Source: an uncultured Burkholderiales bacterium (GTDB lineage: Bacteria; Pseudomonadota; Gammaproteobacteria; Burkholderiales; Burkholderiaceae_C). Taken from it: a stretch of DNA of 64,000 nt. The position numbers were made by a program, and so were the translations under genes. The notes under the pieces were generated by a model, which had not been told where the DNA came from, ran no database searches, and worked only from the letters and a program-made list of their open reading frames with translations. Location: contig CADEDE010000004.1 in NCBI GenBank assembly GCA_902825995.1, positions 3,977-67,976 of the forward strand, written 5' to 3'. Positions 3,555 through 30,760 of the stretch are shown here, piece after piece (position 1 is the stretch's first letter; the number at the start of each line of letters is the position of its first letter).

Positions 3555-4865
3555 ATGGATACGAGCGTGATGAAGGCGATCGGCGGCACGGCCGTTCTGG
3601 CCGTGGCTGGCGGCCTGCTGTGGCTGGGTTCGCAGCCGAATGCGGCCGTGGCGCAGACGCCGGCAGCGTCGGCCGTAGCCGTGCCACCGACAACCCCCGT
3701 GAGCACCGTCGCCGGCATGCCGGCGGTGCCCGATGCGCGCAACCTGTACAGCGAAACCGCCGCCGGCAAGATCGGCCCGGCGCTGGCCGGCGACCTGGCG
3801 CGCATCTACGTGCCCAACCTGCGCTCGAACGACGTCTATGTCGTCGATCCGCAGGCCATGAAAGTCGTCGATCGCTTCAAGGTCGGCATCGGCCCGCAGC
3901 ACATCGTGCCGTCGTGGGATCTGCGCACGCTGTGGGTCACCAACAATGCCGAGGGCCGCAGCGACGGCAGCCTGACACCGATCGACCCGCGCAGCGGCAA
4001 GCCCGGCAATCCGGTGAAGGTCGATGACCCGTACAACATGTACTACACGCCCGACGGCCAATCGGCGATCGTGGTCGCCGAGGCCAGGAAGCGCCTGGAT
4101 TTCCGCGACCCAAAGACGATGACCCTGCAGTATTCGATCGATGTGACCGACTGCCCCGGCGTCAACCACGCCGACTTTGCGATCGACGGCCGCTTCGCGA
4201 TCTTCACCTGCGAGTTCTCCGGTACGCTGGCGAAGATCGACCTGGTCGAGCGCAAGGTGCTCGGCTACCTGAAGCTGACGCTGCCGGCCACGCGGTTGAA
4301 GGAAACACCCGGCGCACCGCGAACGAAACCCGGCCAGGCCTGGGAGCCCGGCCAAACCGAGTTTTGCACCGTGACCAAGGGCATGCCGCAGGACATTCGC
4401 AGCTCGCCCGACGGCAAGCGTTTCTATATCGCCGACATGCATGCCGACGGCGTACACGTCGTCGATGGCGCCTCGTTCAAAGAGGTCGGCTTCATCGCCA
4501 CCGGCCTGGGCGCGCATGGCCTGTACCCGAGCCGCGACGGCAAGCGCCTGTACGTGGCCAACCGCGGCTCGCACAAGATCCACGGCTCACGCCTGGGCAA
4601 CGGCGGTGTCACGGTGATCGACTTCGCCAGCGAGAAAGTGGTGGCGCGCTGGGCCGTTCCCGGCGGCGGCAGCCCCGACATGGGCAACGTCAGCGCCGAC
4701 GGCAAGTACCTCTGGCTGGCCGCGCGTTACGACGACGTGATCTACCGCTTCGACACCGCCAACGGCGACGTGGCGCAGGTCAAGGTGGGCGCCGAGCCGC
4801 ACGGCCTGACGGTGTGGCCACAGCCGGGGCGCTACTCGCTGGGGCATACCGGCAACCTGCGTTGA
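3555..4865 (+). CDS. YVTN-type beta-propeller repeat protein (secreted)
   Basis: ATG 3555 followed by a signal-like segment (AIGGTAVLAVAGGLLWLG). Repeated blades with LYVxN / LWVTN / FYIADM / LYVANRGS motifs. Confidence 0.7.
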   Translation: MDTSVMKAIGGTAVLAVAGGLLWLGSQPNAAVAQTPAASAVAVPPTTPVSTVAGMPAVPDARNLYSETAAGKIGPALAGDLARIYVPNLRSNDVYVVDPQAMKVVDRFKVGIGPQHIVPSWDLRTLWVTNNAEGRSDGSLTPIDPRSGKPGNPVKVDDPYNMYYTPDGQSAIVVAEARKRLDFRDPKTMTLQYSIDVTDCPGVNHADFAIDGRFAIFTCEFSGTLAKIDLVERKVLGYLKLTLPATRLKETPGAPRTKPGQAWEPGQTEFCTVTKGMPQDIRSSPDGKRFYIADMHADGVHVVDGASFKEVGFIATGLGAHGLYPSRDGKRLYVANRGSHKIHGSRLGNGGVTVIDFASEKVVARWAVPGGGSPDMGNVSADGKYLWLAARYDDVIYRFDTANGDVAQVKVGAEPHGLTVWPQPGRYSLGHTGNLR

Positions 4866-6754: not shown

Positions 6755-8173
6755 ATGGCCAGTAAGAACGTCGCTGACGTGATGAAGATGGTGAAGGACA
6801 ACGAGATCAAGTTCGTTGATTTCCGTTTCACCGATACCCGCGGCAAAGAACAACACGTCACCGTGCCGGTATCGCACTTCGACGAAGACAAATTCAGTGC
6901 CGGCCACGCCTTCGACGGTTCGTCGATCGCCGGCTGGAAGGGCATCGAAGCCTCCGACATGCTGCTGATGCCCGACCCGGCCACGGCCAACGTCGACCCC
7001 TTCTTCGAAGAGCCGACCCTGTTGTTGACCTGCGATGTGCTCGAACCCGGCGATGGCAAGCCCTACGAGCGCGACCCGCGTTCGCTGGCCCGCCGCGCCG
7101 AGGCCTACCTGAAGAGCAGCGGCATCGGCGACGCCGCCTTCTTCGGGCCCGAGCCCGAATTCTTCGTCTTCGACAGCGTGCGCTGGAACGTCGATATGTC
7201 GGGCAGCTTCTCGAAGATCGAATCCGAAGAAGCGGCCTGGAACAGCGGCAAGGAATACGAGCACGGCAACTCAGGCTACCGCCCGGGTGTCAAGGGCGGT
7301 TATTTCCCGGTGCCGCCGGTCGACAGCTTCCAGGACATGCGCTCCGAAATGTGCCTGCTGCTCGAACAGCTCGGCGTGCCGGTCGAAGTGCACCACCATG
7401 AGGTTGCCACCGCCGGCCAGATGGAACTCGGCACCAAGTTCAGTACGCTGGTTCAGCGCGCCGACTGGCTGCAACTGCAGAAGTACGTGATCCACAACGT
7501 GGCCCACGCCTACGGCAAGACGGCGACCTTCATGCCCAAACCGATCGTCGGCGACAACGGCAGCGGCATGCATGTGCACCAGAGCGTGTGGAAAGACGGC
7601 AAGAACCTGTTCGCCGGCGACGGCTATGCGGGCCTGTCGGACTTTGCCCTGTACTACATCGGCGGCATCATCAAGCACGCCCGCGCGCTGAATGCCATCA
7701 CCAACCCCGGCACCAACAGCTACAAGCGCCTGGTGCCCGGTTTCGAGGCGCCTGTGAAGCTGGCGTATTCGTCGAAGAATCGCTCGGCCTCGATCCGTAT
7801 TCCGTACGTCGCCAACCCCAAGGGCCGCCGTATCGAGGCTCGCTTCCCGGATCCGCTGTGCAACCCCTACCTGGGCTTCTCGGCGCTGCTGATGGCCGGC
7901 CTGGACGGGGTGGAGAACAAAATCCACCCCGGCGAAGCGGCAACCAAAGACCTGTACCACCTGCCGCCCGAAGAAGACGCGAAGATCCCGACCGTCTGCC
8001 ACAGCCTGGACCAGGCCCTCGATTATCTGGACAAGGGCCGCGCCTTTCTGACCAAGGGCGGGGTCTTCACCGACAGTTATATCGACGCCTACATCGAGCT
8101 GAAGATGCAGGAGGTCACGCGTTTTCGCATGACCACCCACCCGCTCGAGTTCGACATGTACTACGCGGCCTGA
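6755..8173 (+). CDS. glnA: Glutamine synthetase type I
   Basis: 472 aa starting [27 protein letters not shown]. Contains GSGMHVHQS and NPYL, plus the adenylylation-loop region ([10 protein letters not shown]). AGGAGA RBS upstream. Confidence 0.97.
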
Positions 8174-24785: not shown

Positions 24786-25862
24786 CTAGAGGCTCTCTTT
24801 CAGGGCATCGATCATCAGCGCATTTTCCTCGGGAGTGCCCACCGTCAGGCGCAGGCAGTTGGCCAGCAGCGGGTGCAGCGCCTCGACATTCTTCACCAGC
24901 ACGCCGCGCTGTTTCATGCCGGCGAAGGCGCGCTTGGCGTCGGGCACGCGCACGAGGATCATGTTGGCTTCGCTGGGATAGTGTTTTACGCCGGGCAGCG
25001 CCTGGAGCAGCGCTTGCAGGCGATCGCGCTCGCTGCGGATTACCGCCGCCTGGCGCGCGTACTCGTCGGCATGTTCGAGCGCGAACAGCGCCGCCTCGCA
25101 GTTCAGCACGCTGACGTTGAACGGCGGACGCAGCTTGTCGAGCTCGGCGATCAATTCGCGCCGGCCGATCAGGTAGCCGATACGCACGCCAGCCAGGCCG
25201 AATTTGCTCATCGTGCGCATCAGCAACACATGCGCGTGGCGTTGCAATCGCGCCAGCGAGTCGCGCGCGGCAAAGGGCTGGTAAGCCTCGTCCATCACCA
25301 CCAGGCCCGGCGCGGCCTCGATGATCGCGTCGATGGCCGCGTCGTCCCACAGATTGGCCGTGGGGTTGTTCGGATAGGCCAGATAGACGATCGCCGGGCG
25401 GTGCTCGCGCACGGCGGCCAGCATGGCGGGCAGGTCGAGCTCGAAATCCGGCGTCGTCGGCACACCGACGAATTTCAGGCCCTGCAATTGAGCCGCCATC
25501 GCATACATCACGAAGCCCGGCAGCGGCGCGAGCACCGTGGCGCCGGACACATCGCAGGCCAGCGCCAGCAGCGAAATCAGCTCGTCGGAGCCGTTGCCGA
25601 GCATGATTTCGTTGCCCTCGGGCATCCGCGCATGGCGGGCCAATGCGGCGCGCAAGACATCGCTGCGCTCGGCCGGGTAGCGGTTGAGCGCCACCTCGCC
25701 CAGGCGTTCGCCCAGGGCCTTGCGCAGCGGCGCCGGCAGCGCGAACGGGTTTTCCATCGTATCGAGCTTGACCATGCCCGCGCTGGGTTGCACGGCATAG
25801 GCGTGCATGGCCTGGACATCCTGGCGCAGCACGCGCGCCATGCGTTCGGCCAGCAGGCTCAT
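24786..25862 (-). CDS. hisC: Histidinol-phosphate aminotransferase
   Basis: 358 aa from ATG 25862 (MSLLAERMARVLRQDV) with MSKFGLAGVRIGY carrying the PLP lysine. The ATG overlaps the vapC TGA (ATGA). Confidence 0.93.
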   Translation of the reverse strand: MSLLAERMARVLRQDVQAMHAYAVQPSAGMVKLDTMENPFALPAPLRKALGERLGEVALNRYPAERSDVLRAALARHARMPEGNEIMLGNGSDELISLLALACDVSGATVLAPLPGFVMYAMAAQLQGLKFVGVPTTPDFELDLPAMLAAVREHRPAIVYLAYPNNPTANLWDDAAIDAIIEAAPGLVVMDEAYQPFAARDSLARLQRHAHVLLMRTMSKFGLAGVRIGYLIGRRELIAELDKLRPPFNVSVLNCEAALFALEHADEYARQAAVIRSERDRLQALLQALPGVKHYPSEANMILVRVPDAKRAFAGMKQRGVLVKNVEALHPLLANCLRLTVGTPEENALMIDALKESL

Positions 25863-26308
25863 TCCGAAAGCCCGATCTGCTGCGGCGTGGACTTGAAAGG
25901 GTTCACGATATCGACGCCGTCGATCTGCTGGCCGTGCTGCAGGTCTTCGCTGAGCAGGTGGCCGCAGCCCTGCTGCTGCGCGGCGGCAACGATCAGCGCA
26001 TCCCAATAGTTCAGATCGAAGCGGCTCTCGATGGCCCAGGCCGATTCCACCGTCGCGTGATCGATCGCCCACGGCTGCCAATGCTGGTAGCGGCGCACCT
26101 CGGCGCGTGCATCGCCGGCCGCGATCGCGTTGCTGAACTTCTTGCGCGCGTTGCTATAGAACTCGTTCAGAACCTGGGTGCTGATGCGCCCGCACTGGTG
26201 CTGCCAGCAATAGGCCACCCAGGCCCGTGCACCGGCTTGCTTGGCGGGCTCGCGCGGATCGAAGCAATACAGCAGCACATTGGTATCGACGAAGACCGTA
26301 CGGCTCAC
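25859..26308 (-). CDS. vapC: PIN-domain ribonuclease toxin (VapC-like)
   Basis: 149 aa with the acidic PIN quartet in context (FVDTNVLLY, VLNEF, YWDALIVAAA, LLSEDLQHG). The start overlaps the antitoxin stop by 4 nt. Confidence 0.85.
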   Translation of the reverse strand: MSRTVFVDTNVLLYCFDPREPAKQAGARAWVAYCWQHQCGRISTQVLNEFYSNARKKFSNAIAAGDARAEVRRYQHWQPWAIDHATVESAWAIESRFDLNYWDALIVAAAQQQGCGHLLSEDLQHGQQIDGVDIVNPFKSTPQQIGLSE

Positions 26309-26538
26309 CGCGCACCCCGCGTGTACATCTCGTCGCGCGTGAGGTAGCGCCCTTTGCTGGGCCCCCAGCTCTTGAACTCCAGGGCCTCGCGCATGGCGCG
26401 CTCGTAGGCATCGTTGCGGTGCATCTTTTCAGCCACCAGTTCGCCGACCAGGCGCGACACGCTGGTATTGCGCCGCGCGGCTTCCATGCGCGCCCAGTCG
26501 GCGGCGCCGTCTTCCATCGTGATAGTCACGTTTTTCAT
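26305..26538 (-). CDS. vapB: Antitoxin partner of VapC (ribbon-helix-helix-like)
   Basis: 77 aa. MKNVTITMEDGAADWARMEAARRNTSVSRLVGELV fits a beta-strand followed by helix-helix. It lies immediately upstream of, and overlapping, the PIN gene. Confidence 0.75.
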   Translation of the reverse strand: MKNVTITMEDGAADWARMEAARRNTSVSRLVGELVAEKMHRNDAYERAMREALEFKSWGPSKGRYLTRDEMYTRGAR

Positions 26539-26547
26539 GGCGCGTCT

Positions 26548-26605
26548 TTCGTGGCAATGTCACTGGTTTCGTGTTCCACTATTTTCGTGTTGCACGAACT
26601 TCGTG
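26548..26605 (-). promoter_or_regulatory. Candidate vapBC operator / internal promoter region
   Basis: The 67-bp, relatively AT-rich gap between the hisD stop and the vapB ATG holds four TTCGTG direct repeats (26548, 26568, 26584, 26600). The last forms the 13-bp palindrome CACGAACTTCGTG (26593-26605). Confidence 0.35.
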
Positions 26606-28389
26606 TCAACCCGTCAATGGCAACACCATCTCGCGCTCGCCGTCATTCACCTTGCCGGTGTAGGCAAACCCAAAGCCTTCGTAGAAAGCCCCCACCGGGT
26701 TCTCGGGCAGGTGCGACAAAGCAATCTGTGCCACGCCCATGCGCCTGGCCTCGCCGATCAACCAGCGCATCGCCGCCTGGCCGTGGCCTTGGCGCTGGTA
26801 ACGCGCATCGATCATCAGGCGCCAGATATAGAGCTGGTCGGCCGGCTCGTCGGGATCGCGGCGCGCATCCCAGAGCAACAGGAAGCCGACGGGCTCGCCG
26901 TTCGAGTACAGGCCCATCGGCCGGCCGGCCGGCTTGTACGCGGCCTGCGCGAGGGACTTTGCATTCGTCGCGACGAAACGCGCCTGCTCGGGCGTGATGC
27001 TCAGCGCGATGAGTGAGTCGACATCGGCGTCGCGCACCGGCCGCACTTCAAAGTGCGGCGGCGCCGCGGCTACCGGCACCGCGCCGAGCCGCATTTCGGC
27101 CGCGCGCGCGTGGGCTTGCAGGCCCTCGCCATAGGCCAGTTCGGCGGCAATCGGACCCAGCGTATTGGCGCCCGCCGCGCTCACCTCGATCAGGCTCGTG
27201 CGCTTTTGAAAGTCATATACGCCCAGCGGCGATGAGAAGCGCGCCGTGCCCGAGGTCGGCAGCACGTGGTTCGGGCCGGCGCAATAGTCGCCCAGGCTTT
27301 CGCTGGTGTAGGCCCCGAGAAAAATCGCGCCGGCATGCTTGAGCAGCGGCTCCCAGCGCTGCGGCTCGGCACTCGACACTTCGAGATGCTCGGGCGCGAT
27401 GCGGTTGCTAAGCGTGCAAGCTTCTTCCATCGAGCGCGTGAGGATCAGCGCGCCGCGGCCTTCGAGCGAGGCGCGGATGATTCCTTCGCGCGGCAGCGTC
27501 GGCAACAGCCGTTCGATGGACTCGCGCACCGCGTCGAGATAGGCTGCATCGGGGCACAGCAGCAGGCTCTGCGCCAGTTCATCGTGCTCGGCCTGCGAAA
27601 ACAAATCCATCGCCACCCAGTCGGGTGGCGTCGTGCCATCGGCAATGACGAGGATTTCGCTGGGGCCGGCGATCATGTCGATGCCGACCTGGCCGAAGAC
27701 ATGCTTCTTCGCGCTGGCCACATAGGCGTTGCCGGGGCCGGTGACCTTGTCCACGCGCGGGATCGTTGCCGTGCCATAGGCCAGCGCGGCGATCGCCTGC
27801 GCGCCGCCGATCGTGAAGGCGCGCGTGATACCGGCCACATGCGCGGCGGCGAGCACGAGGGCATTCTTCTCGCCGCGCGGCGTCGGCACGACCATCACGA
27901 TCTCGCCCACGCCCGCCACTTGAGCTGGCACCGCATTCATCAACAGGCTCGACGGGTACGCCGCCTTGCCGCCCGGCACATAGATGCCCACGCGATCCAG
28001 CGGCGTGACCTTCTGGCCAAGCAGGCTGCCGTCTTCGTCGCGGTAGCGCCACGATCGGCCGCAGGCATCGAGCTGGCGCTCGTGGTAGTTGCGGATTCGC
28101 GCGGCCGCCGCTTGCAGGGCATCGCGCTGCGCGGGGGTGATCGAGCCAAAAGCCGCGCGCATTTCGTCGCGCGTGAGCGTCAGCGCCGCCATCGACGCGG
28201 CCGCCAATGCATCGAAGCGCGCAGTGCACTCGAGCACGGCGGCATCGCCGCGGGTGCGCACGTCGGCGAGGATTTGGACCACGCGCGATTCGATCTCACC
28301 GTCGGCCTGCGCCGACCAATGCCGCAGGCGCGCGAATTCGGCCTCGAAATCGGCGTTGCGGGTGTCGAGGCGGCGCAGCTTCATTTGGC

Positions 28390-28393
<4 letters not shown>
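26606..28393 (-). CDS. hisD: Histidinol dehydrogenase fused to a C-terminal GNAT acetyltransferase domain
   Basis: 595 aa. Residues 1-~436 are HisD ([15 protein letters not shown], ending [10 protein letters not shown]). An 11-aa linker ([11 protein letters not shown]) is followed by a 148-aa GNAT fold ([29 protein letters not shown]). The reading frame is continuous with no stop. Confidence 0.85.

Positions 28394-30760
<2,367 letters not shown>

Follow-up and report, generated by a model that had tools for sequence, protein, structure and literature searches.

An in-frame fusion of histidinol dehydrogenase to a BltD-family acetyltransferase domain in Burkholderiales, with a tentative role in histidinol N-acetylation

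Histidinol dehydrogenase (HisD), which catalyses the final step of histidine synthesis, is encoded by hisD, a gene of the histidine operon. Here we describe a HisD that continues into a C-terminal acetyltransferase domain of the GNAT type, encoded within a 64,000-nucleotide stretch of DNA (hereafter, the window) from an uncultured Burkholderiales bacterium (GenBank assembly GCA_902825995.1, contig CADEDE010000004.1, positions 3,977 to 67,976 of the forward strand). We conclude that this is very probably a genuine and evolutionarily maintained two-domain protein, in which the only HisD of the genome is joined through a flexible Ala/Pro-rich linker to a folded and apparently active GNAT domain. 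We propose that this domain, which we place in the BltD family, may act on histidinol or a closely related amine of the histidine pathway. Taken as a whole, with a histidinol-type substrate included on top of a real and maintained fusion, this statement falls somewhat short of an even chance. The parts of the fusion are listed below, in coordinates of the window.

26606 to 28393, minus strand: fusion open reading frame of 595 residues, a single frame without internal stop (from the list of open reading frames)
27086 to 28393, minus strand: HisD domain, residues 1 to 436 (PF00815, TIGR00069; the only hisD of the genome)
27053 to 27085, minus strand: Ala/Pro-rich linker of 11 residues, 437 to 447 (variable among relatives; low predicted local distance difference test score [pLDDT])
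26609 to 27052, minus strand: GNAT domain of 148 residues, 448 to 595, predicted BltD-family N-acetyltransferase (PF00583, AlphaFold model, profile search against the PDB, and dN/dS, the ratio of nonsynonymous to synonymous substitution rates)
26780 to 26797, minus strand: acetyl-coenzyme A (acetyl-CoA) binding motif QRQGHG, residues 533 to 538 (conserved in the fusions and in the wider family)
26606 to 26608, minus strand: TGA stop codon of the fusion open reading frame (read from the sequence)

Both domains lie in this one stop-free frame, so the continuous HisD-GNAT reading given in a preliminary description of this DNA stood, as did the range that it named, since 26606 to 27085 spans the linker and the GNAT domain through to the stop codon, and nothing more. 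That description had also reported an 11-residue linker, a complete 148-residue GNAT domain and an acetyl-CoA motif, and all three were borne out by Pfam, by the motif and by a fold model. The Pfam family Histidinol_dh (PF00815) matched residues 28 to 436 (E 8.6e-164; model positions 5 to 411 of 411), and the NCBIfam hisD equivalog TIGR00069 scored 512.9 bits against a cut-off of 243.8. Six HisD residues (Q267, H270, E335, H336, D369, and H428) were invariant across 41 fusion proteins. The motifs SQAEHDE, APEHLE, and GDYxAGxNHVLPT, together with a C-terminal His, are what we take, by comparison with E. coli HisD, to be the metal-binding and catalytic motifs of the enzyme, and they are conserved. 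For the second domain, Acetyltransf_1 (PF00583) matched residues 482 to 576 (E 1.6e-11; 44.9 bits against a gathering cut-off of 20.7). The stretch RQGHGQAAM occupies residues 534 to 542, and QRQGHG (533 to 538) matches the GNAT acetyl-CoA motif Q/RxxGxG/A. Judged by its sequence, the GNAT domain looks complete and catalytically competent.

Searching the whole genome returned one hisD match only, and a second, canonical hisD sought elsewhere in the genome was not found. Therefore, the fusion protein is the enzyme that serves the histidine pathway in this organism. Its gene sits in an operon with the synteny murA-hisG-hisD-...-hisC-hisB-hisH.

We next considered the junction between the two domains. 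Inspection of the junction DNA revealed no stop codon and no obvious Shine-Dalgarno sequence with a start codon inside the linker. The preliminary description had suggested looking for HisD-GNAT fusions in relatives, and many were found, both in a protein database and at genomic loci. A database search with the GNAT part returned 235 proteins; among the matches listed (n = 120), all carried PF00815 together with PF00583, mostly at a length of about 595 residues. HisD ran into the GNAT domain in frame at 22 of 24 relatives' loci. The two exceptions were frameshifts within HisD and not at the junction (locus L014, around 4504 to 4506; locus L031, around 7533 to 7541). These are probably sequencing or assembly errors, one of the two assemblies being a long-read metagenome-assembled genome (MAG). 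Beyond the general possibility, nothing speaks for the alternative that an artefact hides a stop codon or an indel and that there are really two separate genes. The in-frame junction recurs in 22 independent assemblies, and metagenomic proteins that carry both domains and this junction number in the hundreds; linker lengths differ, yet the frame is always preserved. We therefore rejected an artefact, the likelihood of which we consider negligible.

Among relatives, the linker ranges from about 11 to 50 residues and varies in sequence as well. In an AlphaFold model of the full-length protein (predicted template modelling score [pTM] 0.65), the inter-domain geometry was not confident, and pLDDT fell below 50 at residues 442 to 445. 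A variable and disordered linker with no confident packing between the domains speaks for simple tethering rather than for a fixed channel.

We place the organism in the Burkholderiales as a Sphaerotilaceae-type member, with Aquincola and Rubrivivax MAGs as its named relatives. The GNAT domain was present in 16 of 24 genomes of the same genus and, across the GTDB family, in 14 of 301 genomes, which represent 9 of the 201 sampled genera. In those 14 genomes it always lay in an open frame of at least 600 residues, save in one frameshifted assembly. We are confident that the fusion is common to a set of Sphaerotilaceae-type Burkholderiales (Aquincola/Rubrivivax-like) and that some close relatives have since lost it. 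A tree of HisD proteins placed 18 of 23 fusions in one well-supported clade of 25 rows, which also includes seven HisDs without the GNAT domain. A second group of fusions (L016, L037, L045, and L046) and the fusion at L043 were placed outside this main clade, and the well-supported branches require at least four gains or losses of the GNAT domain. In most close pairs (dS approximately 0.27 to 0.54), dN/dS was 0.12 to 0.25 for the GNAT domain versus 0.05 to 0.13 for HisD, with one close pair showing higher values for both; the GNAT domain is therefore under clear purifying selection. Its GC content of 0.64 to 0.72 equals that of hisD.

Two further observations concern the history of the domain. 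The window HisD is nearest to the HisDs of genomes G001 and G004 (88 to 89%), and the window GNAT domain is nearest to the L027/L035 group (77 to 80%), with only 62% identity to the GNAT domain of G001. This mosaic pattern of similarity (window versus L033, L129, L027, and L035) suggests that the junction has seen recombination or that rates differ across it. In addition, P0139, an apparently stand-alone GNAT protein of 159 residues, groups within the HisD-fused clade, and its branch is long. Its locus was sought and none was found; either fission or a truncated gene call could account for the protein.

The AlphaFold model of the GNAT domain (pLDDT 93.2, pTM 0.87) shows the mixed alpha/beta GNAT fold. 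Its Foldseek matches were generic small GNATs, namely PaiA, RimI, Ard1, SpeG, and BltD, with a probability of 1.00 for PaiA, RimI, SpeG, and BltD. When a profile of the family was searched against the PDB, the match to EfBltD (2fl4/9dsb) extended along its entire length (E 7e-25, 91 bits, profile positions 2 to 143 of 147), and the next matches were 8osp (62 bits) and PaiA (59 bits). The GNAT domain as a single sequence also matched EfBltD (E 1.4e-7). EfBltD is a characterised spermine/spermidine N-acetyltransferase (PMC11808394). On this homology, we class the GNAT domain with the BltD family, which comprises small-amine (spermine/spermidine) N-acetyltransferases. It shares with E. faecalis EfBltD and Bacillus subtilis BltD a size of about 150 residues, full-length homology, the QxxGxG motif, a W-R-(L/F)-M-I-D strand, and the C-terminal motifs F-Y...G-F...T-G. 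BltD is free-standing, whereas the domain described here is fused to HisD and is about 23 to 27% identical to it. The HisD-fused clade further differs from BltD in an insertion of its own (residues 508 to 520) and in its own substitutions at G490, R491, W544, E548, H561, and Y578. The wider GNAT family, taken as 2227 representatives at E<=1e-3, consists mostly of stand-alone proteins of 145 to 165 residues or of tandem pairs. Within the cofactor motif, Q533, G536, and G538 are invariant in the 41 fusion proteins and 96 to 99% conserved across the family.

Members of this GNAT family are also fused to two other histidine enzymes. Our family search recovered two GNAT::HisC proteins from two soil MAGs (P0186 and P0271, 84% mutual identity), and P0186 scores above the hisC equivalog cut-off in its C-terminal part (313 bits, cut-off 276.55). 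At the loci L127 (6001 to 7617; GCA_965609575.1) and L128 (6001 to 7635; GCA_965609625.1), GNAT::HisC proteins of 538 and 544 residues are encoded between a 438-residue hisD, which they overlap by 14 nucleotides, and hisB, in a standard murA-hisGDCBHAF(IE) operon. This is the operon position that the GNAT domain occupies in the window, but with fusion to the downstream gene. Four more proteins (P0288, P0314, P0315, and P0316, with identity down to 64%) are GNAT::HisN fusions, and all four pass the histidinol-phosphatase (HisN) equivalog (275.8 to 283.2 against 275.15). In the one context examined (L146 7001 to 8251; Logan ERR15087778), a 416-residue GNAT::HisN lies beside ferrochelatase, outside any his operon. 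HisC yields histidinol phosphate, HisN yields histidinol, and HisD consumes histidinol. Thus, three consecutive enzymes around histidinol bear this GNAT family in some lineage. A search of named genomes for GNAT::HisC and GNAT::HisN returned only relatives with HisC alone or HisN alone, and one candidate GNAT-HisC locus (L066) was rejected on finding that it is another HisD::GNAT. A free tree of the domains separated the HisD-fused from the HisC-fused GNATs, although the trees are weak and an approximately unbiased (AU) test did not reject a joint clade (p 0.68). The HisN-fused set was placed elsewhere in a poorly resolved 240-row tree. Either topology fits a functional link, as a dedicated subfamily or as repeated recruitment.

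Given these fusions, we propose that the GNAT domain would serve as an acetyl-CoA-dependent N-acetyltransferase of L-histidinol or of an amine very near to it in the pathway, e.g., histidinol phosphate. Such an activity would act as a valve for overflow or detoxification once histidinol accumulates faster than HisD oxidises it, and the fusion would ensure one-to-one co-expression as well as proximity to the enzymes that make and consume histidinol. The product has a precedent, with N-acetyl-L-histidinol isolated from histidine-requiring mutants of Streptomyces coelicolor (Ballio et al. 1966, PMID 6004798, as cited in PMC10181443), and our literature search found no enzyme assigned to this compound. 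Histidinol has a second basic group in addition to its primary amine, and by our own reasoning it is a plausible fit for a diamine-type acetyltransferase. The preliminary description saw no rationale for joining HisD to a GNAT domain; histidinol acetylation is now a candidate. We hold the identity of the domain as a histidinol-type N-acetyltransferase tentatively, at somewhat less than even. The broader suggestion, that a BltD-like GNAT is the missing histidinol N-acetyltransferase, an overflow or damage-control valve tethered separately to HisC, HisN, and HisD, is possible, with the balance tilted against it.

The genes that surround the fusion bear on how the GNAT domain arrived and on the alternatives to this proposal. 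They are as follows.

28390 to 29106, minus strand: hisG (ATP phosphoribosyltransferase), the operon gene upstream of hisD (open reading frame; murA-hisG-hisD synteny in all relatives)
26539 to 26605, no strand: AT-richer spacer of 67 bp upstream of vapB, which belongs to the vapBC cassette and not to the GNAT domain (dip in GC content; missing where hisC directly trails the GNAT domain)
26305 to 26538, minus strand: vapB antitoxin gene of an optional cassette that is separate from the GNAT domain (accompanies vapC at hisD/hisC junctions without the GNAT domain)
25859 to 26308, minus strand: vapC, the PIN-domain toxin gene of this optional cassette (PF01850, E 6.9e-11)
24786 to 25862, minus strand: hisC (histidinol-phosphate aminotransferase; PF00155; directly downstream of the GNAT domain in most relatives)

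It had been suggested that the GNAT domain, the AT-richer gap and vapBC form a single inserted cassette, a reading that is contradicted by their independent distributions and by the hisD-like GC content of the GNAT domain. In most relatives, murA-hisG-hisD::GNAT is followed by hisC-hisB-hisH after 10 to 90 bp, and among the loci examined vapBC follows the GNAT domain only in the window, L014, and L015. VapC orthologues were found in 89 of 301 genomes of the family, whereas the GNAT domain was found in 14, and only genomes G000 and G283 have both. At least 8 of 11 loci from other genera have vapBC between hisC and a hisD that lacks the GNAT domain. The AT dip (GC 0.555 to 0.59) is restricted to 26400 to 26700, that is, to the start of vapB and its upstream spacer. 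With the GNAT domain mostly found without vapBC and vapBC often without the GNAT domain, the one-cassette reading is ruled out. These distributions point to separate arrivals of the GNAT domain and of vapBC, the latter as one of several accessory elements that insert at the hisD/hisC junction. In genome G016 (L035 4483 to 5024), a YoeB-like toxin and a YefM/Phd-like antitoxin lie on the opposite strand between hisD-GNAT and hisC; in genome G058 (L037 6051 to 8088), the same junction holds a 440-residue flavoprotein and a 247-residue protein with an Mrr-like C terminus; and L045 and L016 show a comparable gap of 2.4 to 3.7 kb there. This varied cargo (vapBC, YoeB/YefM, and the flavoprotein with the Mrr-like protein) thus marks the junction as an insertion hot spot.

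In the window, the ATG of hisC overlaps the stop codon of vapC (ATGA, 25859 to 25862), and translation of hisC may be coupled to the inserted vapC. Another arrangement was seen in two species of the same genus that lack the GNAT domain, G020 (L130 1501 to 3957) and G006 (L131), where hisD runs without a stop through a spacer of about 29 residues (ERPRSIAAAHVQWQCAIARGRDQRM...) into hisC, an apparent HisD::HisC fusion frame. In G004 (L129), hisD ends at its normal stop codon.

Several observations weigh against a histidinol-acetylating role. The hisD/hisC junction is a demonstrated landing site for unrelated accessory genes, and the wider GNAT family has approximately 17 other fusion partners, including DinB, GST, glyoxalase, cupin, beta-lactamase-like, M20, and methyltransferase domains. 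Given such promiscuous fusions, chance could account for some his partners. Should a single insertion underlie both the HisD and the HisC fusions, only two independent events remain, and a rough, post hoc probability for the coincidence with HisN that is left is p ~0.1; if the HisD and HisC fusions are independent, the equally rough, post hoc figure is p ~0.005. The close relatives G004, G020, and G006 have a hisD without the GNAT domain, which is therefore dispensable for HisD function. No residue column was at once common to all three his-linked groups and infrequent among the other family members, with H561 and Y578 common to the HisD-fused and HisN-fused sets only, and no his genes were found within about 5 kb of 10 stand-alone homologues. 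Identity to BltD at the level given above is too low to infer a substrate. A histidinol-consuming enzyme placed on HisD itself also looks wasteful, unless its Michaelis constant is high. The assignment of histidinol draws on fusion and genomic association, and we put it forward as a suggestion that has somewhat less than half a chance of being right.

Many of the same facts bear on a different explanation, in which a BltD-family N-acetyltransferase of polyamines or xenobiotic amines came to rest at the permissive hisD/hisC site and has a function unrelated to histidine. We regard this as the main rival and a serious possibility, though one below evens, and give the same weight to its further detail, that the gene was fused to hisD via loss of the stop codon and exploits the steady expression of the operon. 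It would agree with the activity of the nearest characterised relative on spermine and spermidine, with the frequent fusion of the family to detoxification-type domains, and with a junction that takes vapBC, YoeB/YefM, and a flavoprotein with an Mrr-like gene; close relatives that dispense with the domain, a variable and disordered linker, and his-linked groups without common specificity residues also favour it. What it leaves unexplained is the occurrence of GNAT::HisN in four diverged proteins, with a locus outside any his operon, and the HisC fusion in another lineage. We think it improbable that the domain is instead a protein acetyltransferase that modifies a lysine or the N terminus of HisD or of another protein and so places histidine synthesis under acetyl-CoA-dependent control. 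Tethering to a target would be sensible for regulation in cis, and RimI, Ard1/Naa, and similar enzymes appear among the Foldseek and profile matches at like scores, but the RimI-type matches span the acetyl-CoA core only, a polyamine acetyltransferase, which acts on small molecules, gives the best sequence match and the sole one that is full-length, and we saw no sign of a conserved target lysine.

The preliminary description had further raised a relationship between the GNAT domain, as a tRNA-acetylating toxin, and the adjacent ribbon-helix-helix (RHH) protein. In the window, L014, and L015 the GNAT domain does adjoin an RHH-like vapB, and it shares the GNAT fold with the toxins of TacAT, AtaRT, and KacAT. 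In other respects the systems differ. The GNAT toxin genes come after their antitoxin gene, whereas here HisD lies upstream of the GNAT domain, which precedes vapB by 67 bp, and vapB overlaps vapC, to which it is coupled. A search of vapB for DUF1778, the antitoxin type of those systems, gave no match (sub-threshold DUF6364 only). KacT (29.5 bits) and AtaT (29.1 bits) matched the family profile only over the acetyl-CoA motif, compared to the full-length match at 91 bits for EfBltD, and there was no toxin in the Foldseek top 50. The two elements do not co-vary either, as the other examined loci with the GNAT domain are without vapBC and vapBC occurs without the GNAT domain in many genera, and the composition of the GNAT domain is native. 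On gene order, antitoxin type, similarity, and co-occurrence we reject a toxin identity, and we consider a toxin carried with vapBC in one cassette extremely unlikely.

ArgH(A) and ArgA are amino-acid pathway enzymes with a small C-terminal GNAT domain that makes N-acetylglutamate. They resemble HisD-GNAT in pairing a biosynthetic enzyme with a small GNAT at the C terminus, one that would here too act on an amine of the pathway. An N-acetylglutamate role is not needed here, because the genome encodes a classical ArgA (602 bits) and ArgJ, and for this reason we rejected a short N-acetylglutamate synthase of the ArgH(A) kind.

HisD-GNAT also bears comparison with the classical his fusions (hisIE, hisNB, HIS4 = hisI-E-D, and HIS7 = hisH-F), in which a his enzyme is likewise fused to a neighbouring frame in a compact operon. 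By analogy, HisD-GNAT probably arose as they did, by loss of a stop codon. The classical fusions unite two his enzymes, whereas HisD-GNAT unites HisD with an acetyltransferase from outside the pathway. Neither PMC1963479 nor PMC10138114, two reviews that treat his fusions and the organisation of the operon, mentions an acetyltransferase, and full-text literature searches for a HisD-GNAT fusion found nothing. No NCBIfam model spans the two-domain architecture, annotation pipelines name these fusions plain "histidinol dehydrogenase," and one NCBI record labels such a fusion a bifunctional histidinal/histidinol dehydrogenase. The architecture can be seen in databases and appears to be unstudied.

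Histidine biosynthesis is a model for how gene fusion shapes pathways, and a conserved fusion of HisD to an acetyltransferase is absent from both of those reviews. If the domain were only a passenger with no link to histidine, the hisD/hisC junction would still stand out as a hot spot for accessory genes at which frames merge readily, as in HisD::GNAT, GNAT::HisC, and the apparent HisD::HisC. If the domain does act on histidinol, the orphan metabolite N-acetylhistidinol would gain an enzyme, and the excretion of N-acetyl-L-histidinol by histidine auxotrophs, on record since 1966, would be explained. One domain on three successive enzymes would then provide a clean Rosetta-stone case, and a pathway that textbooks call "unbranched" would have a side branch that serves as a safety valve.

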